Shown piece after piece: positions 16,121 to 50,882 of a DNA stretch of 64,000 nucleotides (its first letter is position 1; each line of letters starts with the position of its first letter). Source of the stretch: Phycisphaerales bacterium. Its GTDB lineage: Bacteria; Planctomycetota; Phycisphaerae; UBA1845; UTPLA1. The stretch spans positions 2,662,315-2,726,314 of the forward strand of contig JACKHI010000001.1 of assembly GCA_020639075.1 (NCBI GenBank), read 5' to 3'. The notes beneath the pieces are model-generated. The model was not told the DNA's origin and made no database searches. It worked only from the letters and a program-made list of their open reading frames with translations. The translations under genes and the position numbers were made by a program.

Positions 16121-16135
16121 GTAGGTCGGGTCATC

Positions 16136-17677: not shown

Positions 17678-17711
17678 TCGACCCGACATTCGCGGGCGCG
17701 TACCGATTGCG

Positions 17712-34272: not shown

Positions 34273-35637
34273 ATGACAAAGAGCAACAAGGCCCCAGATT
34301 CATGTCGCCTCGACACTCCGAACGCTAGCGTCACTGGTCGCAAGATCCCATGGGTTCCACTCCTGCCCTATCAAAAGGCGGCGATCGAGCGCAGCGACCG
34401 ATTCACGTGGAACTGCTGGTCCCGGCAGACGGGGAAGAGCTTCACATTCAGTCTTCGCCGCTTGATTCGCGGTCTCCATCGGCGGCGCAATCAGATCATC
34501 CTCTCCGCAGGCGAACGACAGAGCCGCGAAGTCATGCACAAGGTGCGGATGCACTGCCATGCAATGCAGATTCATGCAAGTTGGACCGGCAGTTCGATCA
34601 TGAACGGGGCGACATTCAAATCCCTGGAGGCGACGCTCCCGAACGGGGTGCGAATCCTGGCATTACCCGCCAACCCGATGACGGCGCGTGGGTTCACGGG
34701 CGACGTATTTCTCGACGAGTTTGCAATGCATCGCGACGATGCGGAAATCTGGGCGGCGCTGTTTCCGACGTTATTGCGCGGCGATGGCGAATTGGACGTT
34801 GCATCAACGCCCCGAGGAAAAGGAAACCTGTTCTATCGGATGCGCGACAATCCGCAATTCGCAACGTCGCTCGTGACGCTTCGGGATGCGATCGATCAGG
34901 GGCTCCAGGCGAATGAGAGCGAGTTGCGAGACGGCATCGGCGATGAATTCGCATGGCGACAGGAGTTCTGTTGCGAGTTCCTTGACGAGGCCTATGCGTT
35001 CATGCCGCTGGACATGATCCACAATTGCGAGTCCCGCGATGCATCGGTCGCGATCAACTGGGACCTGTTGCGGCTGCACGGCGTGGAGGTTTTTGTCGGC
35101 ATCGACATCGGTCGGTTTCGCGATCTGACAGCGATCTGGCTATGGCGTCGCGACGGCGCAACGTACACAACGATCGGCGTCGAAACGCTCGAGAACACGC
35201 CGTTTGACGAACAGGAAGCGATGATCGCGGAAGTCCTCTCGCAACGGGCAGTGCGGCGATGTTGCATCGATGCATCGGGAATCGGTCTGCATCTGTCCGA
35301 GCGACTCGTCGAGCGATTCGGCGCCCACAGCGTCGAACCCGTTGTGTTCACGCTCGCGGCAAAGAGCCGTATGGCTTCGACGCTTCGAATTCAGGCCGAG
35401 CGCGGCGCGCTTCAGATTCCAAGCGATCGGGCCATCGTCGAGGACTGGCATTCCGTAACGCGCACGGCGAGCGCAGGCGGCAGCGTTCGTTTCGAGGCGG
35501 ATCGCAACAAGAACGGCCACGCCGATCGATTCTGGGCGGCGGCTCTTGGATTGACCGCGGCCGAGGGATGCGGACCGATGGGCGCGGACTTCGCCACGGA
35601 CGGTCGACTCCGCTTCGGCGGCGCCGGGATCTGGTAG
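34273..35637 (+). CDS. Phage terminase large subunit (Mu gp28-like)
   Basis: PLLPYQKAAIERSDRFTWNCWSRQTGKSF is the Walker-A-like ATPase motif. C-terminal nuclease-like region with conserved acidic residues (DIGRFRD, DASGIG). Lies upstream of the portal gene. Confidence 0.8.
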   Translation: MTKSNKAPDSCRLDTPNASVTGRKIPWVPLLPYQKAAIERSDRFTWNCWSRQTGKSFTFSLRRLIRGLHRRRNQIILSAGERQSREVMHKVRMHCHAMQIHASWTGSSIMNGATFKSLEATLPNGVRILALPANPMTARGFTGDVFLDEFAMHRDDAEIWAALFPTLLRGDGELDVASTPRGKGNLFYRMRDNPQFATSLVTLRDAIDQGLQANESELRDGIGDEFAWRQEFCCEFLDEAYAFMPLDMIHNCESRDASVAINWDLLRLHGVEVFVGIDIGRFRDLTAIWLWRRDGATYTTIGVETLENTPFDEQEAMIAEVLSQRAVRRCCIDASGIGLHLSERLVERFGAHSVEPVVFTLAAKSRMASTLRIQAERGALQIPSDRAIVEDWHSVTRTASAGGSVRFEADRNKNGHADRFWAAALGLTAAEGCGPMGADFATDGRLRFGGAGIW

Positions 35638-35768
35638 CGGCGTACGCGCTCGAAATCACCTCACGAGTGCAATCGCGCCGGGCCGGAACACCGGGCAAGT
35701 TCGGAACAGAGAATTCGCGATTGTCGCGGTGCGACGACCGGACCGCGCCGAAAACAGGGAGCCATGCC

Positions 35769-37091
35769 ATGCAATTCTTCGATCGAATCGTCAATTCGCT
35801 GCGTCGAGCCCGTCCGTCTGTTCCGCGCCCCGGGGTCCTCGTGGGCCGGCAGTCAAATGAGCTCTGGCGCGAGTATCCGGCTGACGGTCTGACGCCGCAG
35901 AAGCTGGTCGCGATCATGCGTGAAGCGGACTCGGGCGATCTGGCCGCCCAGATGGCCCTCTTCGAGCAAATGGAAGAACGCGATGCGCATCTCTTCAGCG
36001 TCGCCAACACGCGGCGGCTTGCGATTACCGGTCTTCCGTGGGAAGTCGTGTCGGCGACGGAGATGCCGGGCTGGCGAAGCGCTCCGATCGGACCGGCCGG
36101 CGACAAATCGTTGGCGGACGAAGCGGCGGCCTTCTGCGATGAGACGTTGCGCGGGCTTTGCGAATTCGACGACGCACTTGCGCATCTGTCGCTGGCGTTT
36201 GGTCGGAACATATCAATCGTCGAGCTCGTCTGGGAACCGGGCGCGGGCGGCGTACGACTTGCCGGTATGGTCCCGATTGCGTTCGACCGGCTCATGATCA
36301 ACGACGCGGGGGAGACGCGGATCCTGACGGACGAGGAGCGATTCAAGGGGATCGCCCTGCCGCCGGACAAGTTCATCGTGCATTCGCCGCACGCGCGGAG
36401 CGGTCATGCGATGCGCGGCGGGCTGTTGCGCGTAACGGCGCTGGCGTACCTCGCGAAGCACTTCGCCATCAAGGACTGGATGATCTTCGCCGAAGTCTTC
36501 GGCATGCCGGTTCGCATCGCGCGATACGCGCCGAATGCGACGGAGCGCGAGAAGCGCGAACTGCTGTCGATGTTGAAGCAGCTCGGAGCGGATGCGACGG
36601 GGATTTTCTCGAAGGCCGTCGATGTCGAGATCGTGCAGTCGCGGCTGCCCGGGGAGACGAATCTCTACGAGAATCTGTGTCTCTACTTCGATCGAGAGAT
36701 CAGCAAGGCGTGGCTCGGGCAGACGCTGACGACGGATACGATCCGGACGCGCGCGAGCGCGGGGGCCGCAGCCGTACACGATCGAGTGCGGCGCGATTTG
36801 CGCGACGACGATCTGCGCCGGGAGTCGGCGACGCTGCGTCGCGATGTCCTGGGGCCATTGACGCGGCTTCGATTCGGCCCCGACGCGCCGGTGCCGCATT
36901 TCCGGAGGATTCCGGATCTGACGCTGGAGCCGGAGCGGCTGGCGGCACTGCTGGACACGGCGGTCAACCGGCTCGGCGCGCGTGTGCCACGGCGATGGGC
37001 GCATGCAGCATTGGGAATACCCGAGGCGAACGCCTCCGAGGAAACCGTGCGGGGGCGAGGTAGCAACCTGTCTGTTCCTCGCACGAATTGA
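35769..37091 (+). CDS. Phage portal protein (DUF935, Mu gp29-like)
   Basis: 440 aa from ATG 35769 (AGGGAG RBS). Conserved DUF935 stretches DLAAQMALFEQMEERDAHLFSVANTRRLAITGLPWEV and AFGRNISIVELVW. Confidence 0.8.
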   Translation: MQFFDRIVNSLRRARPSVPRPGVLVGRQSNELWREYPADGLTPQKLVAIMREADSGDLAAQMALFEQMEERDAHLFSVANTRRLAITGLPWEVVSATEMPGWRSAPIGPAGDKSLADEAAAFCDETLRGLCEFDDALAHLSLAFGRNISIVELVWEPGAGGVRLAGMVPIAFDRLMINDAGETRILTDEERFKGIALPPDKFIVHSPHARSGHAMRGGLLRVTALAYLAKHFAIKDWMIFAEVFGMPVRIARYAPNATEREKRELLSMLKQLGADATGIFSKAVDVEIVQSRLPGETNLYENLCLYFDREISKAWLGQTLTTDTIRTRASAGAAAVHDRVRRDLRDDDLRRESATLRRDVLGPLTRLRFGPDAPVPHFRRIPDLTLEPERLAALLDTAVNRLGARVPRRWAHAALGIPEANASEETVRGRGSNLSVPRTN

Positions 37092-37277
37092 CGGCCGCCG
37101 CCGCCATGAACGGCACGCCTCCGCGACCGACTCGATGGCTTTGACGAAATACCTGCCAATATGCGTACAGAATCCGCGTTGCATCCGGCCTGATTCCAGA
37201 CACTATTGAAACCCGTTGCACGACAAAAGCGATTCTGGTTTCATGGTCATTGTCCGGCGATCAGAAGGACGCACGTC

Positions 37278-38480
37278 ATGGCGAACAGCACGGCCCAGAT
37301 TCCGTACACTTATCCGTCGCATGCGCGGTATCGACAGAAGCGCATTCGAATGCAACGGCTGGGCCCACCTGCGTCCATAGCGATCTCGGCGATCGTCTTC
37401 GCGTTGATTGCCGTTCCCGTCTCACAGGTGATCGCGCCCATGGTCGCGAGCATTTCCAACTGGTATTCAATCCTCGCGGCGAGCTCATTCGTGCTCGTTG
37501 CCTGGATGGCAGTCAGTCTTGCAGTCTCGTACGTGCTCGCCCGCTGCACTTACTACGTGTGTCGATATCGGACGATTTCCATCCCGGTGTCATCGTGCGA
37601 TCACTGTCAATATGACCTTTCGAATAACATCAGTGGCAAATGTCCCGAGTGCGGACATGAGATATCAACGCTTCCAACCGAGGAACTTCGTTCCACTCGA
37701 CTGGGCCGCCGCGCTGTTCGATTTGTCGGGATTGTCTCCGCATTCATGGCTGTTGTCGTTCTCGCGACGCTTGCCGTCGGCTGGATCGGTATACGCTTTG
37801 CATCAGTTATTCCGATGCGCCCCGCGCCGGTCACGGCGCCGGTCGGCCAGCCGTCGCTTGCGACGATTTCCGATTCGCAAGGGACGATTACCGTCGCAGC
37901 GGCGACGACCAAGTCGTCGAGCGGCATTCGAGGCAGTGTTCAGTTCGCCGACGAATCGTCAGCCAGTCCGACTGCCGTCGCGAACTGCGTCGTGTACATC
38001 AGGAATGGTCCTGCGACGGGTGCACCCGCGAACACGACGCCATTTGTTTTCGACCTCGTACCGAACGGATTCAGCACGATGCAGGTGTGCATTCAGGCAG
38101 GTCAGCCGATGATCGTGCGTAACCTCGATAGCGTCGGCCGGCAATTCCAGTCGGGCAGACGTCGCCCTGCCAATCCACCCCAGATGCGCGCACTTCCCCA
38201 ATCCGGAATGCAGTTCACCACAAGCTTCGCAATTCCGGAACGAGACATTGCGATCTTCGATACGATTTATGCGCGGGCGGGTACCGTCCGCATGCACGTG
38301 TTCGGTCATCCGTATTTCACGATGACGGATTCGACGGGGGCGTTTGCCCTTCCGATGCTGCCGGCCGGCACATACGAACTCGTCTGCGAAAGCGAGCGCT
38401 ACGGGCGAGTCACGGGCGACATTGTGGTAACGGATTCTTCGCCGTTGGCCATCGAAGTCGTTTACGATGATCTGCGCTAG
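37278..38480 (+). CDS. Membrane protein with zinc-ribbon and C-terminal carboxypeptidase-regulatory-like beta domain (not a known phage function)
   Basis: Two or three TM helices. CDHCQYDL...CPECGHE zinc ribbon. C-terminal GTYELVCESERYGRVTGDIVVTDSSPLAIEVVY beta-sandwich motif. Confidence 0.5.
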   Translation: MANSTAQIPYTYPSHARYRQKRIRMQRLGPPASIAISAIVFALIAVPVSQVIAPMVASISNWYSILAASSFVLVAWMAVSLAVSYVLARCTYYVCRYRTISIPVSSCDHCQYDLSNNISGKCPECGHEISTLPTEELRSTRLGRRAVRFVGIVSAFMAVVVLATLAVGWIGIRFASVIPMRPAPVTAPVGQPSLATISDSQGTITVAAATTKSSSGIRGSVQFADESSASPTAVANCVVYIRNGPATGAPANTTPFVFDLVPNGFSTMQVCIQAGQPMIVRNLDSVGRQFQSGRRRPANPPQMRALPQSGMQFTTSFAIPERDIAIFDTIYARAGTVRMHVFGHPYFTMTDSTGAFALPMLPAGTYELVCESERYGRVTGDIVVTDSSPLAIEVVYDDLR

Positions 38481-38688
38481 CGATCCCCGCCCCCAAAGCC
38501 AGCAGGAAATCGGGCCATCTTGGGGCTTGCGGGCTTGAAGTATTCCACACATTTAGGTAGTTTGATTCCTGGGCGCCGGGGGGGATCGAGCCTTTCCGGC
38601 AGATTTTCATCGTCAGACGCGGCGGGCCCGCTTTGGCAAACACAATTCAGTCATTACGAACCAAGCGGAAGCGATTCTGGGGAGAATC

Positions 38689-41600
38689 ATGAACCGATTC
38701 AACATCCTGGCCGGTGGATTGATCTGTCTGTTCGGATTTGTCAGTATCACGGGCGGCGCAACGCTGTCGCCGGTGATTGACGGGTATGTCTCGAACACCG
38801 TAGCGAACGGTCCGTTTATCAACGTCAATACAACGGGCGATTCCGCGCTTGCGCTGGTCCAGTCGAGCCACGAGGATCGAGCGATCTTCGAATTTGATGT
38901 TCGAAGCTACGGCAGCGGCGCTGTGATTGACAGTCTGTCGTTTCGCTTTCGCATTGTGGCGTCAAACTCCAGCAGTCAAGGGCCGCACACGATCAACTTC
39001 TATGCTTACTCCGGAGACGGCGCGATCACAGCTGCCGATGCGACGGTATCTGGGACATTGATCGGTTCGTTGGTCGCTCCCGATCTCGGAGTGATGGAGA
39101 TTGCCGTTGACGGCGCGACGATCGAGGCATTGATTCAGTCGTCGGACTACCTGGGAATCCGCATTCAATCGACGGGTCCCGGCGGCATTTTCGTCGGAAC
39201 GACGGAGCATTTCGTTGCGGAATTCAGGCCGACGCTCTCGCTGTTGCCGGATCGCGTGTGGCATGTCAATGACGATGCAGCGCCCGGCGGCGACGGTCTG
39301 ACCTGGGCGACGGCTTTCAACGACCTCCAGATGGCAATGGACAGCGCCCAGCCCGGTGAGGAAATCTGGGTGGCGGAAGGCGTCTATCGCCCGACCAAAC
39401 GCACGATTGCAGCGGACCCGCGATCGGCGACATTCGAACTGCGTAACGGCACACGGCTCTACGGCGGTTTTCACGGATTCGAAACAACGCGCCGAATCCG
39501 GCATCCGTTCGAAATCAAGTCGACGCTGCACGGCGACCTGCTTGCTGACGACGTCGGGTTTTCGAATCGCGGAGACAACGCGTATCACGTCGTCAGCGCG
39601 TTGTTCGGCACGACGGATGCAGTCATCGACGGATTCGATATCACTCGCGGCAATGCCTCGGGTGCAACGCCGGATCGGCAGATCGGCGCAGGGTTCTACG
39701 CCAGCTCGGGGACGCCATACGTCCGTAACTGCACGATTCGAGACAACAGTGCGAGCAACCAGGGCGACGGCGCGTATTGCTCCAATTCGTCGGGCAATAC
39801 CTACTTCATCAATTGCATCTTCGATCAACATACATCGGGGGAAGCGCTTCGACTTTCCGGCTCAACGACGAATGCCACGATCCTGAACTGCCTGTTCACG
39901 CGATACGATCGTGGATTGATCACGGGTACGGCAACGGCACATGTGACCAATTCGATCTTCAAAGCCAACACGGGGTTTACGACATTCGAATCCGACCATA
40001 TCAGCGGCAACATCATCATCAATCGTTCGTGCGTTCAAAATTGGACGGGGAACTTCGGCGGCCAGGGGAACTTCGGCGATGATCCGATGCTCGTCTCATT
40101 CGGCACGAGTGGATCGGATTATCACACGCTGCCGGGCTCACCTTGCCGGGACGCGGGCGACGCATCCGATTTCCCGCCGGACATCGACGATTTGGACGAG
40201 GACGGCGACTTCGACGAACCGATGCCGATCGATCTGAGCGGTCAGACCCGAATTGCCGACGACACATGCCAGGCGGATACCGGCGTTCCGGATGCCGGCG
40301 GCGCAGTCATCGACATCGGTCCATACGAGTATTCCCCGACGCAGCCGGCGCCGACGACGAGTCGATTGTATGTGGACCCAATGGCGATGGGCGCAAACAA
40401 CGGTACGAGTTGGTCGGACGCCTTCGTCGAGCTGCGCGATGCGATGGATGCGGCGTATTACCATCCGTGCGCAGGCGTCGAGGAAATCTGGGTCGTGTCG
40501 GGAACTTATCTGCCGTCGGATGCGGCCGATCGATTCGCGAGTTTCAAGCTGTCCGACGATGTGAAAGTCTACGGAGGGTTCAGCGGCGGCGAGAATGCGC
40601 TCGAACAGCGCAATGCAGATCCGATGACGAACGGGTCCATACTCAGCGGAAACATCGGAGACGCAAACGCGACGGACAACGTGTACACTGTCGTCGACGT
40701 GACTCGATCGAGCGCGCTGGCGACGCTGGACGGCTTCACGATCACCGGCGGATATGCCGATCAACGCTCGTCGACATCGCCTCGCGGAACGGGCGGCGGG
40801 ATCTTCGGGCTCGAATCCAACTTGCATCTTCGGAATCTGCGAATCACAGACAATATCGCGTACGTCGGCGGCGGCGTGAATATTGACGACGGCAATCCCG
40901 TGTTTGAGGACTGCACGATCGACTCAAACACACTCTTCGAGAACGTCAATGTCAACCGCGCGGCGGGCGTGAACATCGGCATCGGCCTGCGACCCGAGTT
41001 TCGTCGCTGCCGATTCCTCAACAACCAACGAGAGACGGCGATCGGCGGCGCCCTGTCGTTTCGTGGATCCGTCGGGCGAATACCGATTGTGGACTGTGAT
41101 TTCGAGGACAACATCGCAGGCATCGGCGGCGCGATCAGCTACGACCTGAACGCATCCGTGGATATCGTGAATTGCCGGTTCAGGAACAATCGCGGATACG
41201 TCGAGAGTTTCCCCAACTCGCACAGCGGCGCGCTCTTCCTTCTGGGAGGCGACGTCACGTTGACCAATTGCGAATTCGTCGGGAACGTCGGCCGCAATTT
41301 CGGCGGCGCGATCGTTTCGGGCTACCTGTCGAATCTAGAGATCTCGAATTGCACTTTCACCGACAACCATACAGACGGAAATGGCGGCGGGATCATTGCG
41401 ATCGCATCCACGATCACGATTCGCAACAGCATCCTCTGGGGCAATACGGACAACGGCGGCGCGAACGGCGACGCAGGCGCACAGATATACGATGAGTCCT
41501 CTGACGGACCGAACACGATCACGATGGAGTACAGTTGCGTGCAGGACGGCAACCCCGGCGACGGAAGCGTCTATGTTGGGGCAGGAAACATCGATGTGGA

Positions 41601-42252
41601 TCCCCAGTTCGTCGGGGTGGATGATGTACATCTGTCGATGACATCGCCGTGCCTCGATGCTGGTGACAACACCGGCGTTGCGCCCGACGTGCTCGATATC
41701 GATGGCAATGCCGATACCGCGGAACCCATTCCGTATGATCTGGACGGCGTCGCACGTTTCAGTGACGCGCCCGCCGTGGATACGGGCAATCCTGACGGTG
41801 TTCATCCCATCGTGGATATGGGTGCGTATGAACTGGTCTCGAGTTTCGTCGCGCGCCTGGGCGACATGAACTGCGATACGCTCGTGGATGGGCGGGATGT
41901 CGAGCCGTTTATCTTGGCGATGACCGATCCGCTGGAATTCATGGCACGCTATCCCGACTGCAATGCGGCAAACGGCGACATCGACGAGAACAGCGTTCTG
42001 GAACTGGCGGACCTGCCAGGCTTCATCTACCTCCTGCTCGATCGCTCGGTTGAATTTCGCCCGGGCGACATGAATTGTGATGGTTTGGTGAACGGCATCG
42101 ACGTCGGCGCGTTCGCCCTGGCTGTGACGGACCCGGCGCATTTTGAGTCGACATTCCCGAACTGCTCGTTGTTGAACGGGGATTTGAGCGGCGATCAAAC
42201 GGTACAGCTTGACGATCTGCCGTTCTTCGTGGACCTGCTGCTCGCTGACTAG
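38689..42252 (+). CDS. Large secreted right-handed beta-helix (pectate-lyase fold) protein with three C-terminal dockerin-like repeats
   Basis: 1187 aa. Signal peptide. Two pectin-lyase-fold regions with the N..T..N/IRDN repeats. C-terminal GDMNCDTLVDGRDVEPF..., GDMNCDGLVNGIDVGAF... repeats, the same module as the esterase at 18395-19561. Confidence 0.7.
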   Translation: MNRFNILAGGLICLFGFVSITGGATLSPVIDGYVSNTVANGPFINVNTTGDSALALVQSSHEDRAIFEFDVRSYGSGAVIDSLSFRFRIVASNSSSQGPHTINFYAYSGDGAITAADATVSGTLIGSLVAPDLGVMEIAVDGATIEALIQSSDYLGIRIQSTGPGGIFVGTTEHFVAEFRPTLSLLPDRVWHVNDDAAPGGDGLTWATAFNDLQMAMDSAQPGEEIWVAEGVYRPTKRTIAADPRSATFELRNGTRLYGGFHGFETTRRIRHPFEIKSTLHGDLLADDVGFSNRGDNAYHVVSALFGTTDAVIDGFDITRGNASGATPDRQIGAGFYASSGTPYVRNCTIRDNSASNQGDGAYCSNSSGNTYFINCIFDQHTSGEALRLSGSTTNATILNCLFTRYDRGLITGTATAHVTNSIFKANTGFTTFESDHISGNIIINRSCVQNWTGNFGGQGNFGDDPMLVSFGTSGSDYHTLPGSPCRDAGDASDFPPDIDDLDEDGDFDEPMPIDLSGQTRIADDTCQADTGVPDAGGAVIDIGPYEYSPTQPAPTTSRLYVDPMAMGANNGTSWSDAFVELRDAMDAAYYHPCAGVEEIWVVSGTYLPSDAADRFASFKLSDDVKVYGGFSGGENALEQRNADPMTNGSILSGNIGDANATDNVYTVVDVTRSSALATLDGFTITGGYADQRSSTSPRGTGGGIFGLESNLHLRNLRITDNIAYVGGGVNIDDGNPVFEDCTIDSNTLFENVNVNRAAGVNIGIGLRPEFRRCRFLNNQRETAIGGALSFRGSVGRIPIVDCDFEDNIAGIGGAISYDLNASVDIVNCRFRNNRGYVESFPNSHSGALFLLGGDVTLTNCEFVGNVGRNFGGAIVSGYLSNLEISNCTFTDNHTDGNGGGIIAIASTITIRNSILWGNTDNGGANGDAGAQIYDESSDGPNTITMEYSCVQDGNPGDGSVYVGAGNIDVDPQFVGVDDVHLSMTSPCLDAGDNTGVAPDVLDIDGNADTAEPIPYDLDGVARFSDAPAVDTGNPDGVHPIVDMGAYELVSSFVARLGDMNCDTLVDGRDVEPFILAMTDPLEFMARYPDCNAANGDIDENSVLELADLPGFIYLLLDRSVEFRPGDMNCDGLVNGIDVGAFALAVTDPAHFESTFPNCSLLNGDLSGDQTVQLDDLPFFVDLLLAD

Positions 42253-42623
42253 GGATGTGAAGCGGCGTCGCGCGAGCAACGCACGATGGCTCCGCAGTCG
42301 GCTGCTGAAACCAATGCCGGATCGACCGTGCGATGGTCACAATCGGCCCGGATTCACGGAACGGAATCGACCCCGCGGATTGGTCGGCCGAGCCGACTGG
42401 CCCTCGGCGATCATACTAACGCAACGCCATATGATTCAGTGATTTATGTCACGCCGCCCGCGCGCAATCCGGCCTGAGGGCGGTTCTCGCCAAGGGTGCC
42501 GATAGGCGAGCGCGGATCGTTGAATCCCGTCCGAAAACTCGATATCATAGCTGACTGAGACGCGCGGATTGCGCGCCTGGGAAAGTAGCAAGTCTCTCGT
42601 CTCGAAGAAGGGAATAAAGAAGC

Positions 42624-43340
42624 ATGTTCAATCGACGACATCAAACGGCGGTCGCGGCTTTGGCGATCGTCGCGCTCTTTGCGACGCTGCCGGCAACGGC
42701 TGCGGAAATAGAAGTCGGCTCAGCCATGGGAACGGTCACACTGAACAGCGACACCGTCGGAACCGTTGATCCGATCGCCGGGACGGATGCGTTCCAGTGG
42801 ACCGGCAACATGACGAACTCGACGATGGGCTGGGGGCTCACGTGGGATCTGACGATCGATCCGGACCCCGGAATCTCCGGCGTTGCGGCGTTCACGAATC
42901 TGACCGGCGTCACGATGAACTTCACGTATAACGTGTCGGCGCTCTCGACGATTGCGATCGGCAGCCCGACGGTATTCGGCTCATCGGCGATTACCGTGAC
43001 TGACGGCGTATCGCTCGGCGGTGCGACGATGTCGGCGTTGACGGGCGACTCGATCTACAACGCGTTTATCAATGCGGCGACGCAGGGAACGTTGTTCAAC
43101 GATCCCTATTCGCTCGTCGCCCCACAGTTCGGATCCAACTCCGACAACGCGAGCTGGGGACCGCAGGCGGCGACTGGACCGCTGGCCATCGGCGACACGT
43201 TCGGCATCAATCACGACTTCAGCCTGACGCCGGGCGACCAGGCGACGGTCAACAGCAATTTCTTCATCATTCCGGAACCGGCGACGCTGGGCTTGCTCGC
43301 GTTCGGCGGCATCGTCATGCTTCGACGCCGCAGTCGCTGA
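42624..43340 (+). CDS. PEP-CTERM sorting-domain protein
   Basis: Signal peptide, Thr/Gly-rich body, C-terminal IPEPATLGLLAFGGIVMLRRRSR (PEP motif, TM helix, basic tail). Confidence 0.75.
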   Translation: MFNRRHQTAVAALAIVALFATLPATAAEIEVGSAMGTVTLNSDTVGTVDPIAGTDAFQWTGNMTNSTMGWGLTWDLTIDPDPGISGVAAFTNLTGVTMNFTYNVSALSTIAIGSPTVFGSSAITVTDGVSLGGATMSALTGDSIYNAFINAATQGTLFNDPYSLVAPQFGSNSDNASWGPQAATGPLAIGDTFGINHDFSLTPGDQATVNSNFFIIPEPATLGLLAFGGIVMLRRRSR

Positions 43341-43373
43341 ATCATACGGAATCACCTGATTAGACAAGAAGGC

Positions 43374-43405
43374 CGATCGCGTTTGCGATCGGTCTTTTTT
43401 TGTGT
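43374..43405 (+). terminator. Rho-independent terminator
   Basis: ggccgatcgc-gttt-gcgatcggtc followed by TTTTTTTGTG. Confidence 0.6.
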
Positions 43406-43499
43406 TCTTCACGCATTTGCGAGACGACACCCTGTATTCGTCCCTGCCCCTCAGAACTTTGGGCAGCAAGGCTCTTGACGACCATTGAAGCCCCGAAAA

Positions 43500-43800
43500 A
43501 AGTGGTCCATCACTGAATATCGTGAAGCTCCGTTGGCATCTGCGGTAGCGCAAGTACCGCGTCCCGATAGGGACGCGCTGAGAATAGCCCAGCCTTTCAA
43601 GGCTGGGATTGATAGTTGGTTACTACCATCGCCGTGCCGTAGGTACGGCGCGACTCCGCGCATCAAGCTCATCCCGTCCTGCTGGGCAACGCCGTGAACT
43701 GAACACAGCTGCGGCAGCACCAGTCAGAGAAACTATGAGCGTGTTCCCCCGGTTGGGATAATTGACCCAAGTTGTTAGAGACGGGTTTGGTTATCTCACG
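43500..43800 (+). ncRNA. Candidate IS110 bridge/seeker RNA in the element's 5' leader
   Basis: Stable hairpins: gcggta-gcgcaag-taccgc (43542-43560), cgcgtccc-gata-gggacgcg (43558-43577), cccagcc-tttcaa-ggctggg (43588-43607), gccgtgcc-gta-ggtacggc (43631-43649). Confidence 0.35.
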
Positions 43801-43816
43801 AACGGAGGAACTCACA

Positions 43817-44848
43817 ATGTTATATGTTGGCATGGACGTACATCTGTTGTCTACCACGATTTGCATTTTTGATCCGACGGCGGACGAACGGCGTCGATAT
43901 CGCACGGTGAAGGTCCCGACGACCGCCGAGGCGATTCGTGGAGTGCTCGAGCCGCTGAACGGGGATTGCAAGGCCGTTTTCGAGATCGGTCCTCATGCCC
44001 AGGCGATCATGGCCATTGTCAAACCCCTGGCCGCCGACGTTCTGGTCGCCAACCCATCCCTGATCCCGTGGCTCTTTCGCGACGGTCGCAAGAACGACAA
44101 GATCGACGCACGCAAGTTGGTGACGTTGCTCTATCTGAACCAGGTGCCGACGGTGCATCTGCCGAGGGCCGACATCGCCGCGTGGCGGGCGCTGATCAAC
44201 CATCGCCGCACCGTGGTGAAGCGTCGCACCAGGGTCAAGAACCAGATTCGCTCGATCCTCCGCGCCTACCTGTACCGCTGCCCGCACAGGAGTTGCTGGA
44301 CGCGAGTCGGACGAATCTGGCTCTCGTCGCTGGCCTTCGACGAACTTCGTCAGTTCATGGTCGAATCGCAGACGGCGGAACTGGACGGGCTCGACGAGAA
44401 GCTGAACGACATTCATCGCCAACTCGATCGGATCGCCAGGCTGCATTCGGACGTGGCGCTGCTACAGACGATTCCCGGCGTGGGACCGCGCACTGCAGAA
44501 GCCGTCGTTGCCTTTACCGACGGCGTCAAACGCTTCCGCGATGGCAAACAGTTCTCGAGTAACTTCGGGGTCGTGCCGACGCTGGATGTCTCGGATGGTC
44601 GCGGCCGCGAAGGATGTATATCGCGGCGCGGCGCCAGCGTGGTGCGTTGGCTGGTCGTCGAGGCGGCGCATGTGGTGATCCGACGCAACCCCGAAATGCG
44701 CGCCTTCTTCGAGCGAGTCCATCGCGGCAGGAAGGATCGGTACAAGAAGGCCATCGTCGCGACGGCTCGCAAGTTGTTGGTGATCGCGTATGCGATGATG
44801 CGGGATCAATCGAAATTCGCACCACAGCGCGTGAGTGCGGCCGCATGA
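43817..44848 (+). CDS. IS110-family transposase (DEDD N-terminal domain plus Transposase_20 C-terminal domain)
   Basis: N-terminus MLYVGMDVH...EIGPHAQ (DEDD_Tnp_IS110). C-terminus LLQTIPGVGPRTAEAVVAFTDGVKRFRDGKQFSSNFGVVPTLDVSDGR. RBS ACGGAGGAA. Confidence 0.85.
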   Translation: MLYVGMDVHLLSTTICIFDPTADERRRYRTVKVPTTAEAIRGVLEPLNGDCKAVFEIGPHAQAIMAIVKPLAADVLVANPSLIPWLFRDGRKNDKIDARKLVTLLYLNQVPTVHLPRADIAAWRALINHRRTVVKRRTRVKNQIRSILRAYLYRCPHRSCWTRVGRIWLSSLAFDELRQFMVESQTAELDGLDEKLNDIHRQLDRIARLHSDVALLQTIPGVGPRTAEAVVAFTDGVKRFRDGKQFSSNFGVVPTLDVSDGRGREGCISRRGASVVRWLVVEAAHVVIRRNPEMRAFFERVHRGRKDRYKKAIVATARKLLVIAYAMMRDQSKFAPQRVSAAA

Positions 44849-45448
44849 TCCGACCGTCGCGAGGCCTCCGATTGGGTGAAGGCCCCGCGATCGGTCGAAT
44901 CATGCTGAGGGTGTAAGACGAAAAAGTGCCGGCGACTGGCGTTGAAAAGGTCGCGGCGGACAGGAGCGTGAAACGGGTCAAGAACGACGGGATGAATTGG
45001 AGTGAGCCCGAACGTGGCGGCTTGATCGTCGAACGGTTGAAAGAACCGCCGGCAGATCGATTCCAGAGAATGGGCCACTCCCCCTGCAAAATCTCATGTG
45101 CCCCGGCCGCATCGAAAGCTACGGAAGGTGAGCACGAATCAGAAGCCTGGAACATTATCCGTCAAAAAATCCCGCCCCTTGACAAACACACGCTCATAGA
45201 AGCCGCCGTGTCCTCACGGCGGAGTCATGCCCATGTACGCTGGATGATTCGCCACGCTGAGACGGTGAGGCACTGATTAGAGCATTCAGTTCACGGCGTT
45301 GCCCGCTGGGACGGGACCTGAAAAACGGCCGCCAACCCCCCGTTGCAGACGGGGGGCCATTCTCATGTGATCCCTGCGGGATCCGGAGTGGATACATCTG
45401 TCGCTCTTGTACCAAGACACCGAATCATCCCGATTTTCCGTGATGAAC

Positions 45449-45491
45449 CAAAAAAGAGCAGCTTGGCCATCCATCGATAACCAAGCTGCTC
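45449..45491 (-). terminator. Rho-independent terminator after 45540..45968
   Basis: Minus strand gagcagcttgg-(14-nt loop)-ccaagctgctc followed by TTTTTTGG. Confidence 0.5.
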
Positions 45492-45539
45492 TCAACTGAC
45501 TTCTGCGGCCGGCGCGCCGGCCGTCAGGCTGATTCGTGA

Positions 45540-45968
45540 TTATTCGACGATTTGCTGAAACCAATCCTCCGTGATCAGTACATCGCGACTGTCGTAGGCC
45601 TCCAGCGTGAATGTGATATCCCTGTCAAGTGCGAAGGTATCGACCGGCACGCTGCCGAACAGGCATTGTTTCTCATCATCGTCCTTACGGACCGACATTT
45701 TGTAGGACTTGTCGTTCACGGTGATCATGCCACGTGCGGGCAGCATGTCTTCCGGAAACTCGGCCATCGGAGTGATTTTGAAAACAGCGGAACCATCCTT
45801 CCAGACCTGATACTCGTAGAGCATGGGCTGATCAAGCGGCCCAGCGTCCGACTCACTCGTCAGTACGGGTTTCTCTGACCAGTTCATCGAACCTGCGATT
45901 GCGGAGATCGAGGTCATCGCCAGGACTGCAATGATTGATCCAATGGCGAGGTGTTTTCGAGCCTTCAT
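45540..45968 (-). CDS. Small secreted protein (142 aa), paralog of 52054..52473
   Basis: Signal peptide. About 50% identical to 52054..52473 (shared W.E.PV..TS..AG..DQP..YE..VWKDGSA..K.TPM.E.PE.MLPA.G.I.VND..YKM.VRKD....QCL.G..PV). No known family. Confidence 0.55.
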   Translation of the reverse strand: MKARKHLAIGSIIAVLAMTSISAIAGSMNWSEKPVLTSESDAGPLDQPMLYEYQVWKDGSAVFKITPMAEFPEDMLPARGMITVNDKSYKMSVRKDDDEKQCLFGSVPVDTFALDRDITFTLEAYDSRDVLITEDWFQQIVE

Positions 45969-46323
45969 CACCTGTCTCCCTTTGTCGTGCGCGGCACTCG
46001 GCCTCTTGAGGATCGCTGCCCGAGCCCCCTTTCCGCTGTGCATATGAAAATAGCAGAGATTGTGGCCATCCTGCAACAATAATATGCAGCATCTCCACAC
46101 ACTGCCGCGTGACTCTCGAATTCTAGCAGAAGGCCGCCATACCTCTGACGCTTCCATCGGGGCTCCACGATTCGAAATACTCCCAATTCACTACTGCGCG
46201 GCACTCCCGGATCGAGTTGCCATGCCGGCGAGAATTCTGAAATCGCCTCCACTTCGCGGAACACCGGTCAAGGATGAGTCCCGAATTGCACGAGTGAATT
46301 CGGCCATATTTCGGGAGGTCAAC

Positions 46324-47391
46324 ATGACAAGTTCAATGGTCCATTCAGCGGAGCGAGCGCGGCCGCAGGAATGCGAGCGGATCGCGCTTGAGGCGACACA
46401 AGTGTGTCACAGTGAGCAAATATCGGCGCCGCCGGTGCGCGTTCTGATCGTGCCCTGGGGTGAAGTCCGCAGCGCTTCCGGAGACTTCGTCGTCGATGCC
46501 GACGGCGCGGCACAGGCGATTGCGGCGTTCTCGGCGCACGGCGCGGATCTGCCGGTAGACTACGAACATCAGACGCTCGGTGGAACCTACGCGTCGCCAA
46601 ACGGACAAGCCCCCGCCGCCGGTTGGATCACGGGGCTTCGTGTCGTGACGCCAAGCGGCGATCGCGCGCCCGGCGCATCCGCAATCAACTCAGCCTTGTC
46701 GGACGAGACCGACTCGCACAGCTTGAGCGTCAACGACGACGGTTCCGGAACATCCCGACCGGCACCGGGCATCTGGGCGGACGTATCCTGGACGGACGAC
46801 GCAAAGCAGCATCTCGCGGCGCGGCGCTATCGCTATCTCTCGCCGGTCGCGCTGGTACGCAAGGCCGATCGCAAATTGATCGGCGTGCACTCCGTTGCGC
46901 TGACGAACAAGCCGGCGATCGTGGGCATGACGCCGGTCGTGAATCGGTCGGCGACGATCGAAGCGGAGTCGCTGGATCTCGCGCCGCTGAAGTCGGTGCT
47001 GCGCCTCGACGACTCGGCGTCGGCGACGGCGATCGTCGCGGGGGCAGTGTCTCGCGTGCGCGAACTCGAGCGGCGGGAGACCGAGCGAGAGGCGGCGCGA
47101 CGCGTCGAGGAGGCGTGCCGGTCCGGCAAGCTCGCGGCGCCGCAGCGCGACTGGGCGTTCGCATTGGCCCTGAAGGATGCCGCGGAGTTCGATCGCTGGC
47201 TGGCAAGTGCGCCTGTCGTCGTTCCGCTCGGGCGTTCGACGGCGCCGGGCCCGGGATCTGCATCGCACGCCGGCTTTCAACGCTCCGCGGCTTCATCGGC
47301 GAAAGCCGAGTGGCAGGCGAATCGTGCATTCCTGGAGCGTCTCTGCACGGAAGAGGCGTATGTCGCGACGGCGCTGCGCGACGTGAACTAA
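46324..47391 (+). CDS. Mu-like prophage protein I (head maturation protease/scaffold, gp32-like)
   Basis: VRVLIVPWGEVRSASGDFVVDADGAAQAIAAFSAHGADLPVDYEHQT resembles the Mu I N-terminal domain. Coiled-coil C-terminal region. GGGAGG RBS before ATG 46324. Confidence 0.7.
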   Translation: MTSSMVHSAERARPQECERIALEATQVCHSEQISAPPVRVLIVPWGEVRSASGDFVVDADGAAQAIAAFSAHGADLPVDYEHQTLGGTYASPNGQAPAAGWITGLRVVTPSGDRAPGASAINSALSDETDSHSLSVNDDGSGTSRPAPGIWADVSWTDDAKQHLAARRYRYLSPVALVRKADRKLIGVHSVALTNKPAIVGMTPVVNRSATIEAESLDLAPLKSVLRLDDSASATAIVAGAVSRVRELERRETEREAARRVEEACRSGKLAAPQRDWAFALALKDAAEFDRWLASAPVVVPLGRSTAPGPGSASHAGFQRSAASSAKAEWQANRAFLERLCTEEAYVATALRDVN

Positions 47392-47557
47392 CGCGCTCGC
47401 GAATCGGTTGGCGACATGCGGGCTGATCGATCGACACCCATCCATTGAGTAATCACGGGCGTTATGTCGCGAGCCCCGGTGTCAGTTCGGCTACGCCGCA
47501 TTGATTCGCATCTGACGTCCGATTGAACATCAACAAGAACATCGGAAGGAGAACATT

Positions 47558-48313
47558 GTGGCGCTAACGGCAAATCGGGAATTGAATCGGTATGTGGATC
47601 AGGAGCTGCGATCTTTCGGCGTCGCGGCGAGCGAGCACATTTACAAAGGCGCACTGGTCGGATTCGATCGTACGTCGGGATTTGTGCGGCCCTATGCTGC
47701 AGGCGATACGTTCGCAGGGATCGCCTACGAAGAGATCGACAACAGTGCCGGCCAGGGCGGCGATCTGTCGATCCGGCTGTACACGCAGGGGGATTTCATT
47801 CTCACCGTCAACGGCGCCGTGCAGAATCTCGCGGGGGCTGCGGTCTATGCATCGAACGATGATCTGATGACGGCCGTTCCGAGCGGGAATCTGACGCCGG
47901 CGGGCATTCTGATCGCCGTCGTCGGATCGAATCTCGGAATCGTGCGGATCCGACCGTTCCTGGCGTCGTCGATCGAGCACGTGGTGCAGACGTCGATCGC
48001 CGGTTCTACATCGGCGGCGACGACTCACGTCGTGTTGACGACGCAACACGCGATCCGAATCGTCAGCGTGCAGGTTCTGTATCTCACGCCGCCGGACCAG
48101 GGCGCCCTGGACGTCGGCTTTTCAGTCGCGGACCCCGACGACATCGTCAACAACTTCAATCTGGCGACGCTGTCCGCGAACGCGATCCAGGCGATGACGC
48201 TTGCGGGGCGCGACGTGACGGCGGGCGTTTCGCTGCTGGCTCGCGTGGGGCAGGCTTCGTCGAACGCGGGTGCGGGCGGCATCGTGACGATCCGGTACGT
48301 CGAACTGCCGTGA
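47558..48313 (+). CDS. Phage head-module protein, unknown (occupies the Mu Z scaffold position)
   Basis: GTG start with GGAAGGAG RBS. Lies between the protease and major-head genes. No recognisable domain. Confidence 0.5.
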   Translation: MALTANRELNRYVDQELRSFGVAASEHIYKGALVGFDRTSGFVRPYAAGDTFAGIAYEEIDNSAGQGGDLSIRLYTQGDFILTVNGAVQNLAGAAVYASNDDLMTAVPSGNLTPAGILIAVVGSNLGIVRIRPFLASSIEHVVQTSIAGSTSAATTHVVLTTQHAIRIVSVQVLYLTPPDQGALDVGFSVADPDDIVNNFNLATLSANAIQAMTLAGRDVTAGVSLLARVGQASSNAGAGGIVTIRYVELP

Positions 48314-48414
48314 CGATCGGAATGACAGCCGTTTCTTTCTGAGATTAGGCGTCGCGCGGCATCCGATTGTCGTGACGCGTTGAATAACAACCACAGCCAC
48401 AGGAGTGCTGACAA

Positions 48415-49329
48415 ATGGCCATTATCAATACGGGGCTATTGACGAAGGGGCTCAAGAGCGAATTCTTCAATCGGCTCGAAGCAACGAAGACGCATTACCA
48501 GGATTTGTCGACGCGCGTGACGTCGACGACGGATCGCGAGACGTATCGCTGGCTCGGCACCGTTCCGCAGGTTCGCGAATGGGGCACGGGCCGACTCGCG
48601 AAGGGGTTGCGCAACGAGAGCTACTCCATCGAAAATCTCAAGTATGAGTCGACGCTGGAAGTCGATCGCGACGAAATCAGCGACGACCAGACGGGGCAGA
48701 TACGATTGCGCGTGGCGGAACTGGCCGAACGCGCAGCGACGCACAAGGACTTCCTCATTGCGCAATTGCTGGCCAATGGCGAGATGGCGGGGAACGACGG
48801 CTACGACGGCGTCAGTTTCATCAATGCCAATCACGTTTCGGGCGCATCCGGGACGCAAAGCAACCTGATGTCATTCGACGCCGCCGATGTCGCCGAGCCG
48901 ACGGTCGATGAGTTCAAGGAGGCGCTCAAGGCGGCGATCAGCCAAATGCTCGGATTCAAGGACGACCAGGGCGAGCCGATGATGACGACGGCGAGCGGTC
49001 TGACCTGCGTCGTACCAACGACGATGTTGTTCACCGCGTCGGAGGCGATCAACTCCACGGTCATCGACAATTCGACGAACGTGCTGCACGGCATCGCGCG
49101 GGTGATCGCCTTTCCGTGGCTGACCGACCTCTCCAAATGGTACCTGTTGAAGACCGACGGGGTCGTGCGGCCCTTCATTTTCCAGGATCGCGAGCCGATT
49201 GAGTTCAACGCATTGACCGAAGATTCGGACGAGGGCTTCCGGCGCGAGAAGTTCCTGTTCGGCGTGCGGGCGCGGTATCGCATGGCCTATGGCTACTGGC
49301 AATTCGCCGTGCGGACGGACTTCATCTAA
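48415..49329 (+). CDS. Mu-like major head subunit (gpT family)
   Basis: MAIINTGLLTKGLKSEFFNRLEATKTHYQDLSTRVTSTTDRETYRWLGTVPQVREWGTGRLAKGL matches the gpT/PF10124 N-terminus. Confidence 0.8.
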   Translation: MAIINTGLLTKGLKSEFFNRLEATKTHYQDLSTRVTSTTDRETYRWLGTVPQVREWGTGRLAKGLRNESYSIENLKYESTLEVDRDEISDDQTGQIRLRVAELAERAATHKDFLIAQLLANGEMAGNDGYDGVSFINANHVSGASGTQSNLMSFDAADVAEPTVDEFKEALKAAISQMLGFKDDQGEPMMTTASGLTCVVPTTMLFTASEAINSTVIDNSTNVLHGIARVIAFPWLTDLSKWYLLKTDGVVRPFIFQDREPIEFNALTEDSDEGFRREKFLFGVRARYRMAYGYWQFAVRTDFI

Positions 49330-49500
49330 AGCCGGCGCACGGATGTCCCATCTCCGAGTGGGCACGGGGATGGGGCATTCTGCGCTTGTTGAAGATCTCA
49401 GCCCCAGTATCCGCGCAATAGGTTTGACGCCCGACCCGATCCGTCCAAGCCCGACATCAGGCGCGGGGTACGGTGTCTTTCATCAGAGAGGAAAACTGTC

Positions 49501-49944
49501 ATGGCATACGTATCAAATGCGGACATACAGGCGCTGCTCGGAACAGCGGCGACGATCGAGCTGACGGACGACGCGGGGAGCGGGACGATCAACGCGTCGA
49601 TTCTGACGACGGCCCGAATCGGCGCCGAAGGCGAGGCCAACAGCTACTTCGCGACACGCTATCGGGTTCCGGTCGAACTATCGAACGAAGCCGAAGTTGC
49701 GGCCGTGATTCAGACATTCGTCCTTGATCTGGCGGTCTATCGGCTGCACAGCCGCAAGCCACCGATCCCCGATGACATCGTCCGCCGGCGACAGGAGGCG
49801 GTTGCCTGGCTATCGCGCGTGGCGGATGGTCGTGTGCGCCTGCCGTCCATCGCATTGCTGCAAGACAACGACGCGGCAGGGTTGATCGGCAAGGCGACAG
49901 GGCCCACACGAACCATGACGCGCGAGTCATTGGACGACATCTGA
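49501..49944 (+). CDS. Mu gp36-like head-tail connector protein (DUF1320)
   Basis: MAYVSNADIQALLG...LTDDAGSGTINASILTTARIGAEGEANSYFATRYRVPVE fits the DUF1320 pattern. Confidence 0.7.
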   Translation: MAYVSNADIQALLGTAATIELTDDAGSGTINASILTTARIGAEGEANSYFATRYRVPVELSNEAEVAAVIQTFVLDLAVYRLHSRKPPIPDDIVRRRQEAVAWLSRVADGRVRLPSIALLQDNDAAGLIGKATGPTRTMTRESLDDI

Positions 49945-50054
49945 GAAACGTGAGGGCGACGACGTGACGCAGCGAACCGGGTAACGGCACGATTGCGCCG
50001 TCGAATCGGGTGTCGGCGTCACGTTCGCCAACGACTCCGGGAAAGAGGATCCAC

Positions 50055-50882
50055 ATGTCTCGACTGGGCGACATCGAATCAACCATCGTTTCTCGACTCT
50101 CAACAGCAACCGTGGCTGGCAGCCCGGCATATGCGACGATCGAAGGCGTCAGCGGCGGCAATCGAGCCGCGCTCCGCGAGGCACTGCGACGTGAACGAAT
50201 GCCGGCGGCCTACGTCTCCTTCGTCGATGAACCGTTGGCGCCGGAGGTGCGAGAGGCGATTCGCGGCTCGAGGTTTGCGGTGCTCGTCGCCGATCGAACG
50301 TTGCGACCGGCGTCGGATCCGAGGCTGGGTGACGAGTCGACGCCCGGAACATTCGCCCTGCTGGATGCGGCCCAGGCCGTACTGGACGACTTCTCTCCGG
50401 CGGCGGGGACTCGTCTTGTCGCTATTCAGGCGCGATTCGTCGAGGCGGATGATCGCGTCGGCATGTATGAACTGCTCTATCGCGCGTGGCCGATCGACGA
50501 GGTCGCACCAAGCGTGCTGGAATTCGATGGAAGCACGATCGCCGGCGCGCTCAGCGAATTGCGTGCGGACATCGGAAGTTTTCGCGTCGTGCCCGAGGAT
50601 CCGGAGGCCGATCCGCCTTGGACGTATGTCAACACGTCGCGCCCCATCGTCTGGCGCGGAGAGATTCGCTCGACGACCCATGCGGCGATGTGGGCGATCG
50701 AAGACAACATCGAGGCGCTCATCGCGGCGCGAACCGTCGCAACGCTCAAAAGCGTCCACGGTCAAAACCTCGACGACTGCCTGATCGAGCGGTACGAGCG
50801 CGTCGGGGCGCGGCGGATCGTCGGGACGCGCATTACGCAGCCCGCGGCGATTCACTTCTCGCAGTTGACGCCGGTGCCGTAG
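50055..50882 (+). CDS. Mu gp37-like protein (DUF1834-like), last phage-type gene of the module
   Basis: Position after the gp36-like gene. GAAAGAGGA RBS before ATG 50055. Its last 250 bp are duplicated at 56238-56492. Confidence 0.5.
   Translation: MSRLGDIESTIVSRLSTATVAGSPAYATIEGVSGGNRAALREALRRERMPAAYVSFVDEPLAPEVREAIRGSRFAVLVADRTLRPASDPRLGDESTPGTFALLDAAQAVLDDFSPAAGTRLVAIQARFVEADDRVGMYELLYRAWPIDEVAPSVLEFDGSTIAGALSELRADIGSFRVVPEDPEADPPWTYVNTSRPIVWRGEIRSTTHAAMWAIEDNIEALIAARTVATLKSVHGQNLDDCLIERYERVGARRIVGTRITQPAAIHFSQLTPVP
50632..50882. repeat. Direct repeat copy 1 (3' end of the gp37-like gene including its stop)
   Basis: Near-identical (about 5 mismatches in 250 bp) to 56238-56492. Confidence 0.8.

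Follow-up and report, generated by a model that had tools for sequence, protein, structure and literature searches.

Head and packaging genes in the window

The stretch analysed here (hereafter, the window) comprises 64,000 nucleotides of contig JACKHI010000001.1 from the Phycisphaerales bacterium assembly GCA_020639075.1, and carries a cluster of seven phage-derived genes for DNA packaging, head and neck proteins, most of them of Mu families. The genes were identified through open reading frame (ORF) calling and Pfam and PHROG profile scans of the window ORFs. An independent assembly (SRR12358676; L001) has the same genes, at 100% amino-acid identity, and the related loci mentioned in the list, like all other L numbers, are introduced in the next section.

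34234-35637 (alternative start 34273), + strand: TerL, large terminase (Pfam Terminase_6N, 2e-16; Terminase_6C, 9e-12)
35769-37091, + strand: Mu-type portal, 440 aa, starting at the MQFFDRIV methionine (Pfam Portal_Mu, 3e-82)
46324-47391, + strand: Mu protein I-type prohead protease/scaffold, 355 aa (Pfam Mu-like_Pro, 5e-48; identical gene call in L001)
47558-48313, + strand: minor capsid/decoration-like virion protein, 251 aa (phrog_1731 "virion structural protein", 5e-18)
48415-49329, + strand: major capsid protein of the Mu gpT family (Pfam Mu-like_gpT, 9e-57)
49501-49944, + strand: gp36-type head-tail adaptor (Pfam Phage_Mu_Gp36, 7e-23; found in 77 loci)
50055-50882, + strand: gp37-like neck protein, 275 aa, in an ORF opening at 50010 (Pfam Phage_Mu_Gp37, 1e-7; Phage_tail_terminator, 1e-3)

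The TerL motifs are all intact (Walker A, RQTGKS; Walker B, VFLDEF; nuclease Asp), a GGGAGG ribosome-binding site lies directly 5' of the protease/scaffold gene, and the matches to Portal_Mu, Mu-like_Pro, Mu-like_gpT, Phage_Mu_Gp36 and Phage_Mu_Gp37 all exceed the Pfam cut-offs. The portal start was chosen from alignments of relatives and the translation, and that of the gp37-like gene was adopted from the L001 gene call; the gp37-like protein has an N-terminal half resembling gp37 and tail terminators and a C-terminal domain kept in relatives (family hidden Markov model (HMM), 2e-109). A preliminary description of this DNA had assigned TerL, portal, protein I, gpT, gp36 and gp37-like genes, and each of these assignments is borne out by the profile scans. 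The listed head genes are therefore real, and the inventory has now been extended with the gene at 47558-48313, which had been missed and whose product also gives weak matches to head decoration (phrog_122, 2e-4) and to the XM1_gp53 minor capsid protein, and with the absence of Mu F and G.

Gene order in the cluster is that of gp28-gp37 in the annotated Mu record (NC_000929), with no counterparts of Mu gp27 (small terminase), gp30 (F) or gp31 (G) found in the window cluster, and with Phage_Mu_F absent. The preliminary description had also reported a CheW gene where a small terminase would be expected, together with a lack of tail, early, lysis and integrase genes, and these statements hold: a CheW-CZB gene lies upstream of TerL (33114-34175, - strand), the Pfam and PHROG scans give no tail or lysis matches in 32.9-57.5 kb, and neither these scans nor HMMs of all tail-side families of the relatives detected tail, tube, tape-measure, hub or fibre genes across the 64 kb. 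Transposase A/B, c repressor, integrase and Mu ends were likewise not found among the window ORFs scanned, the window transposases being those of insertion sequences (IS) only, namely IS110 (43772-44848) and DDE_Tnp_1 copies (13.9-17.6 kb). A + strand ORF at 32937-34058, considered as a small terminase, was rejected as an antisense artefact of the CheW gene.

Distribution and chromosomal position of the cluster

Relatives were sought with a capsid protein scan of one genome per species (GTDB r232), in which they were recovered via exact 8-residue peptides of the window capsid. The scan found 119 relatives, 80 of which were kept as the set of related loci, each from a different assembly, with capsid identities of 68-91%. 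The labels of these assemblies are Phycisphaerae, Phycisphaerales or Planctomycetota, apart from a few uninformative ones and one Thiobacillus that is probably mis-binned, and the 80 loci include two complete chromosomes and many contigs longer than 100 kb. Only two capsid matches, at 53% identity, were obtained from 2.9 million viral contigs, and matches to phage records in the INPHARED/GenBank collection reach at most 35% identity and are all to Mu-like phages. The two viral-contig relatives (L082 and L083, from IMG/VR) continue after gp36 with a run of 140-170-aa genes, a 445-aa gene and several 265-680-aa genes, in the manner of a long-tail module, and may be free phage relatives of the domesticated cluster.

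Searches with the window proteins (tblastn) showed that the relatives, too, have these seven genes in a compact block and in unchanged order, with TerL and gp36 spanning 5.5-6.9 kb in 54 loci. TerL orthologues are 41-62% identical across 54 loci, and the minor capsid/decoration-like gene was found in 75. A search for small terminases revealed no conserved ORF upstream of TerL in 44 loci. Since the compact block is common to the relatives, Mu F and G and the small terminase are missing family-wide and not only in the window. An apparent second gp37 paralogue in relatives (207-216 aa) was rejected as a single-linkage clustering artefact, not homologous to the window gp37.

The window cluster is bordered by cellular genes on either side:

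33114-34175, - strand: CheW-CZB gene, upstream flank, divergent from TerL (Pfam CheW, 2.5e-24; CZB, 6e-13)
56508-57515, + strand: PTPS-domain protein, downstream flank (Pfam PTPS, 3e-36)
57643-60053, - strand: 154-aa and HEAT-repeat genes, downstream flank, marking a conserved chromosomal site together with PTPS

Farther upstream than CheW-CZB lie a Band7/SPFH gene and then a tRNA, and HEAT, FG-GAP and TPR genes are found beyond PTPS. Taken together, the genes of the window suggest a planctomycete as host. A survey of the flanks of related loci took in, within 4-5 kb of the cluster, 82 ORFs upstream and 92 downstream, and the most frequent Pfam families listed are all cellular, comprising TPR proteins, kinases, transporters, response regulators and sugar-nucleotide enzymes. 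Integrase, transposase A/B, tail, lysis and TerS (small terminase) families are not among the most frequent flank families listed, so that adjacent tail, lysis or transposase genes, which the preliminary description had held would make this an ordinary prophage, are missing from the commonest neighbours. No tRNA adjoins the cluster in 40 loci. Within the window's clade, 14 loci have PTPS 3' of the cluster and 6-7 have the 154-aa and HEAT genes there, and on the upstream side the chromosome CP030884.1 (L011) has Band7 as in the window, with a tRNA gene upstream of Band7 in both (tRNA-Phe in L011). Capsid identity rises and falls with flank identity (r=0.87 for PTPS, n=14; r=0.95 for HEAT, n=7), the capsid being more conserved than the flanks (79% for capsid and 45% for HEAT between the window and L013). 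At the level of genome comparison, these results show that the cluster is inherited vertically and fixed in Phycisphaerae chromosomes.

An ancestral distal block and its loss

Clustering of ORFs across loci was used to define the states found downstream of the head genes. In state B, gp37 is followed by seven same-strand genes, F13 (~715 aa), F15 (160), F8 (280), F27 and relatives (207-230), F9 (175), F14 (250) and F17 (120), and then by the flank, which is PTPS in L011 and L024 and the 154-aa and HEAT genes in L013. State C, confined to a distant clade, has a different short block composed of F11, F12, F7, F16 and F21. In the head-only state, cellular genes follow gp37 directly or past unrelated genes, a state seen in 17 or more species of the window's clade; the head-only arrangement that the preliminary description had proposed to look for in orthologous loci is thus present there.

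Profile searches against Pfam, PHROG and PDB sequences gave no useful matches for F13, F15, F8, F27, F9, F14 and F17 or for F11, F12 and F7. An exhaustive HMMER search gathered 382 F13-like clusters, and an AlphaFold model of F13 computed from an 80-sequence alignment (mean pLDDT 87.4) matched baseplate hub and tail-tip proteins in a Foldseek comparison with the PDB (E 1e-8 to 1e-5). The top matches were the tail tips of Bxb1 (1e-8) and Douge (8e-8), and others were the central spikes of Photorhabdus virulence cassettes and extracellular contractile injection systems (PVC/eCIS), Mu gp44 (1wru, 9ki1) and VgrG. As modelled, F13 folds as a baseplate hub/tail-tip-type protein, and the ancestral cluster therefore possessed a distal device of hub type immediately behind the neck gene, with nothing recognisable as a tube, sheath or tape-measure gene between the neck gene and the F13 hub. 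In genomes and metagenomes, every close F13 homologue with visible upstream sequence directly follows head genes. HMMs of the distal-block families, including a deep F13 profile, found no trace of them in the 64 kb window. A sub-clade formed by L030, L048, L061, L063, L052 and L050 has distal F15, F8, F9 and F14 genes without the F13 hub and the long gp37.

The state-B members of the window's clade (L011, L012, L013 and L024) form one group, separate from the deep B clade, and the tree of the concatenated head genes and that of F13+F8+F9+F14 are mutually congruent. The block was therefore inherited vertically and the head-only states represent several independent losses, at least six when counted on a neighbour-joining topology without support values. 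As reconstructed from these loci, the ancestral form is an already reduced, chromosomally fixed cluster of 12-14 kb and not a full prophage. The nearest hub-containing relative of the window is L011, whose distal block (12556-17896) shows 37-39% identity, compared with 53-62% among L012, L013 and L024, its head genes not being unusually diverged. This divergence may reflect relaxed constraint in the lineage where the window then lost the block.

Selection on the head genes

Ratios of nonsynonymous to synonymous substitution rates (dN/dS) between the window and twelve relatives were 0.05-0.5 for every core gene, with saturated dS, and were similar to those of flanking cellular genes. Between closely related head-only species (L025/L029, L003/L005, L014/L025, L019/L068 and L010/L027), dN/dS was 0.09-0.3, at dS of 0.7-2, for TerL, portal, protease, minor capsid, capsid and gp36. 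The window keeps 108 of 110 family-invariant residues (positions at least 95% conserved) in TerL, 63 of 63 in the protease and 120 of 120 in the portal. Tajima-type relative-rate counts revealed no excess of window-specific changes against L011, L002 and L017 (for example, 33 vs 43 in TerL, 37 vs 44 in the portal and 24 vs 27 in the capsid). The invariant residues and the relative rates, taken as genomic indicators, argue against neutral decay, and agree with the initial impression, drawn from the intact reading frames, that this is not a decaying prophage. The relative-rate triple of the window and L003 with L013 as outgroup (TerL chi2 10.8) was set aside, because L003 is not the sister of the window in the concatenated tree and the triple is not a valid test.

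Two insertions in the window copy

The window cluster is interrupted between the portal and protease genes, as judged from gap comparison with related loci and Pfam, and a terminator scan located a hairpin within the interrupting stretch:

37092-46323, no strand: lineage-specific 9.2 kb insertion splitting the cluster between portal and protease
37206-38480: CarboxypepD_reg membrane protein, 424 aa
38689-42252: beta-helix protein, 1187 aa
42624-43340: PEP-CTERM protein
43366-43399, + strand: strong terminator-like hairpin
43772-44848: IS110 transposase
45540-46157, - strand: small secreted protein

In 61 related loci, the portal and protease genes are separated by a median of 56 nt and by 313 nt at most, and the 9.2 kb stretch is therefore a secondary insertion unique to the window lineage; the 9 kb gap had at first been described as part of the arrangement, which does not stand. 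The CarboxypepD_reg family of the 37206-38480 gene is also found a few kb upstream of TerL in L013 (1798-2676), L015 and L051, as a recurrent neighbour of the cluster.

At the 3' end of the cluster, repeat finding identified a duplicated segment bracketing a second block, in which all genes lie on the minus strand:

50635-50882, + strand: direct repeat copy 1, 248 nt, the 3' end of the gp37-like gene including its stop codon
50883-56244, no strand: 5.4 kb inserted block, absent from L002 and partly common to L017
50974-51990, - strand: trypsin-like protease (Pfam Trypsin_2)
52054-52473, - strand: small secreted protein
52862-53833, - strand: trypsin-like protease (Pfam Trypsin_2)
53857-54639, - strand: lipoprotein
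55071-55760, - strand: 229-aa protein with no assigned function
56245-56492, + strand: direct repeat copy 2, an orphan gp37 3' fragment 98% identical to copy 1

Copy 1 is continuous with the remainder of gp37, which the duplication has left intact, and copy 2 is followed by PTPS just as gp37 is in L002, keeping the ancestral gp37-PTPS junction. Both outer junctions being ancestral, the 5,362 nt between the copies constitute an insertion. The two copies differ by ~2%, compared with ~71% identity of this segment between the window and L017, so the duplication is either recent or homogenised. Trypsin-like orthologues occupy the same place in L017, where the repeat is absent, and the L001 contig stops after ~45 nt of copy 1, which a genuine repeat would lead one to expect. 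The preliminary description had suggested that the second half of a prophage was deleted at this repeat (there given as 250 bp); a seven-gene distal block has indeed been lost, without trace at the repeat, which instead brackets the 5.4 kb insertion. The repeat was accordingly rejected as a deletion scar or att site, given that it brackets an insertion, that no recombinase lies inside and that L017 has related genes there without it.

Discussion

With a moderate degree of confidence, we interpret the region as a secondarily interrupted copy of an ancient phage-derived cluster fixed in Phycisphaerae, that is, as a domesticated capsid and packaging module resembling a gene transfer agent (GTA), in a tail-less state and with a function predicted from its genes. 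Maintenance of the cluster under purifying selection in more than 100 Phycisphaerae species, many of them without tail genes, suggests a GTA-like particle of a new type. A domesticated, GTA-like capsid unit had been among the initial proposals for this locus, and is now supported by the presence of the head-only cluster in many species, by its conserved site and by purifying selection. The distal block was lost independently in several lineages, that of the window included, with the head genes staying intact and constrained; in the window genome, the 9.2 kb insertion later split the cluster, and the 5.4 kb block with its 248-nt duplication entered after gp37. Judged from its genes, we lean towards the window copy still being functional.

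In a functional copy, the protease/scaffold and the capsid protein would assemble a prohead on the portal dodecamer, TerL would package DNA through the portal, and gp36 and gp37 would seal the portal vertex, yielding a DNA-filled, portal-closed capsid. Because no small terminase was found anywhere in the family, the start of packaging would probably not be sequence-specific, as in GTAs; the lack of this gene is compatible with packaging of random DNA but is no evidence for it. Members with a hub would form a GTA-like particle with a minimal delivery device. Phage-inducible chromosomal islands of the capsid-forming kind (cf-PICIs) release tail-less, DNA-filled capsids that become infective after binding tails made by others (10.1101/2025.02.11.637232), and in the tail-less state the Phycisphaerae particle may similarly depend on tails or tail tips made elsewhere, or may serve a host function without an injection device. 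The retained and constrained adaptor and terminator-like neck genes fit a particle that still docks to something. A Phycisphaerae metagenome-assembled genome (MAG) that carries the head cluster (L075) also contains a separate element (L103/L104; BTUC01000182.1 and a Logan contig), whose products are a transposase resembling MuA, an ATPase resembling MuB, a protease of Mu I type, a 521-aa protein and an F13-like hub (797 aa), with no recognisable terminase, portal or capsid gene between protease and hub. As a Mu-like element with an F13-like hub thus resides in at least one cluster-carrying MAG, potential tail donors occur in the class.

Several observations weigh against a functional, domesticated module. 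Nearly all carrier genomes are MAGs, and tail genes could lie elsewhere in the head-only genomes. The 68% identity floor of the related loci is an ascertainment effect of the exact-peptide recovery, and the trees are neighbour-joining trees of cluster genes without branch support values. Because dS is saturated in most comparisons, constraint lost recently and only in the window lineage would go undetected, and in L017, the nearest relative judged by its flanking genes, the capsid gene is 5'-truncated and the upstream head genes are not adjacent, so that the cluster can decay in the sub-lineage of the window. The operon is split in this genome by 9.2 kb containing IS110 and a terminator-like hairpin, and its distal half would therefore need a promoter of its own. 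In no member of the family was a small terminase or a lysis function found, and the formation, DNA content and release of particles are predictions from the genes.

Some of the same observations would be explained if the family were functional elsewhere and the window copy had died after loss of the hub block and the 9.2 kb split, its frames being intact because little time has passed. Such an inert remnant is unlikely in our estimation, in spite of an insertion that brings IS110 and a strong terminator-like hairpin into the operon, a second insertion with partial gene duplication at the 3' end, the IS-rich surroundings, a truncated L017 capsid lacking adjacent upstream head genes, and a saturated dS behind which recent relaxation could hide. 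All seven genes are full length and keep 291 of the 293 invariant residues of TerL, protease and portal, window-specific substitutions are not in excess against L011, L002 or L017, gp37 is intact despite the 248-nt duplication, and purifying selection acts on head-only clusters in many further species. Somewhat less likely still is a particle that is complete but encoded at split loci, with the head-only genomes, the window's among them, specifying a tail or tail tip at another chromosomal site. Retention of a constrained gp36 adaptor and gp37 terminator-like neck makes most sense if something docks there, and the view of the window genome is limited to 64 kb; within those 64 kb, however, no distal-block family member is present, the close F13 homologues with visible upstream sequence all stand directly after head genes, and several independent relocations would be a less parsimonious history than several losses.

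The reading of the locus as a mobile satellite like the cf-PICIs, or as an ordinary Mu-like prophage that a break in the assembly has truncated, is largely refuted and in our judgement highly improbable. The combination of terminase, portal, protease, capsid and connectors without a tail does resemble the packaging module of cf-PICIs, and a Mu-like transposable element is present in a Phycisphaerae MAG. Against this, no integrase, replication or regulatory module or TerS was found within 10 kb of related loci among the families listed, the cluster occupies the same chromosomal site across species and diverges in step with its flanks, single contigs (two complete chromosomes among them) show cellular genes to either side, Mu A/B genes and Mu ends are missing, and the independent assembly agrees with the window. 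Of the signs of mobility looked for, none was found: copies diverge with their flanks, no att-like repeats bound the window cluster, and tRNA genes are not adjacent in the 40 loci surveyed.

By analogy, cf-PICIs, with their own terminase, portal, protease, capsid and connectors and no tail, would provide the closest working model for the head-only module. They differ in having an integrase, regulatory and replication modules and a small terminase, of which the Phycisphaerae cluster has none (neither the integrase, nor an AlpA-type regulator, nor a primase/replication module was found in the window or related loci), and in occurring as identical copies across species, whereas the Phycisphaerae cluster diverges with the host chromosome. 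The window does have TerL and head genes without a tail, but no small terminase, and its head genes belong to Mu families and not to the HK97 type.

By genomic criteria, the family would work most like a gene transfer agent. The GTA of Rhodobacter capsulatus (RcGTA), in the Alphaproteobacteria, is likewise specified by a small phage-derived structural cluster (~7-14 kb in the family described here) that is chromosomally fixed, vertically inherited and under purifying selection, contains neither an integrase nor replication or lysis genes, and at its size could not encode a phage. RcGTA also has accessory loci away from its main cluster. The Phycisphaerae cluster differs from it in its Mu-family heads, which are not of the RcGTA/HK97 kind, in lacking a small terminase and in its Planctomycetota host; moreover, its ancestral distal block has a hub and no recognisable tube or tape measure, and many members are without any tail genes. 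Of the features by which GTAs are recognised, the window thus displays a resident cluster free of phage modules, with vertical descent and purifying selection, and does not contain a complete head together with a tail or delivery apparatus.

Compared with the gp28-gp37 late region of Mu, the window cluster has the same protein families in the same order, with an additional minor-capsid gene between I and T in the Phycisphaerae cluster. Unlike Mu, it is without gp27, gp30 (F), gp31 (G), gp38, sheath, tube and tape measure, as well as transposase A/B, repressor, lysis genes and Mu ends, and it has a fixed chromosomal position. PBSX-like elements and tailocins provide another parallel, as phage structural genes kept by the host under selection after autonomy was lost; tailocins, however, keep tails and lose heads, whereas the Phycisphaerae family retains the genes for head, packaging and neck and has lost the tail-tip block time and again.

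We propose only tentatively that the family constitutes a previously undescribed class of domesticated Mu-type particles, in which many lineages, including that of the window, have a tail-less DNA-packaging capsid kept by host selection. Such a capsid could act as a gene-transfer vehicle with borrowed tails or tail tips, the donors being co-resident phages or relatives, or could be a DNA export or storage capsid needing no injection device. No description of a planctomycete GTA or of a Mu-like element in Phycisphaerae was found in the searchable literature; to our knowledge, GTAs are known from few lineages, none of them in the Planctomycetota, where routes of horizontal gene transfer are poorly understood. 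If the proposed interpretation is correct, this would be the first GTA-like system in the Planctomycetota and the first chromosomally fixed element to keep heads while repeatedly discarding tails. The cluster is a concrete, testable candidate for a new particle type and a natural experiment on capsid use without a tail, and in this respect the wider family is of more interest than the window copy itself. There is also a consequence for annotation, since hundreds of MAGs will have these loci marked as incomplete prophages by prophage-finding programs, whereas the loci behave like host genes.

Other features of the window

Integration linked to a tRNA was rejected for the window cluster, the tRNA at 30872-30937 being two cellular genes away from TerL and the 40 related loci having no adjacent tRNA. 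This tRNA is an Rfam match (57 bits, model positions 4-67 of 71) that ARAGORN missed; ARAGORN reports instead a 79-nt tRNA-Ile(tat) at 32982-33060, to which Rfam gives no support. Two 1576-nt DDE_Tnp_1 IS copies, 99% identical and inverted, lie 747 nt apart at 13796-17694, and a 75-nt direct repeat is found at 15338 and 17660.

In the product of the PTPS gene (56508-57515), the PTPS domain (6-pyruvoyl-tetrahydropterin synthase/QueD-like) comprises residues 204-335 only, and the ~200 N-terminal residues have no family match, yet are conserved in relatives. In the 14 loci where it occurs, the gene is always 3' of the cluster and on the same strand, at times overlapping the last cluster gene.

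The two insertions contain one each of a pair of small secreted paralogues (45540-46157 and 52054-52473, both - strand), which are 54% identical (tblastn), and the trypsin-like serine proteases of the 5.4 kb block (50974-51990 and 52862-53833, both - strand) are likewise paralogues, with a GxSGGPV motif; the two pairs are described as flanking the distal half of the head cluster. The 229-aa gene abuts the 5'-truncated capsid gene in L017 and lies ~0.5 kb from the orphan gp37 fragment in the window, so that in both (window, 55071-56492; L017, 1558-3495) this minus-strand gene stands beside a 5'-truncated fragment of the head cluster, the L017 capsid being short by ~31 codons. Its position may be a coincidence or may mark a recurrent recombination partner.

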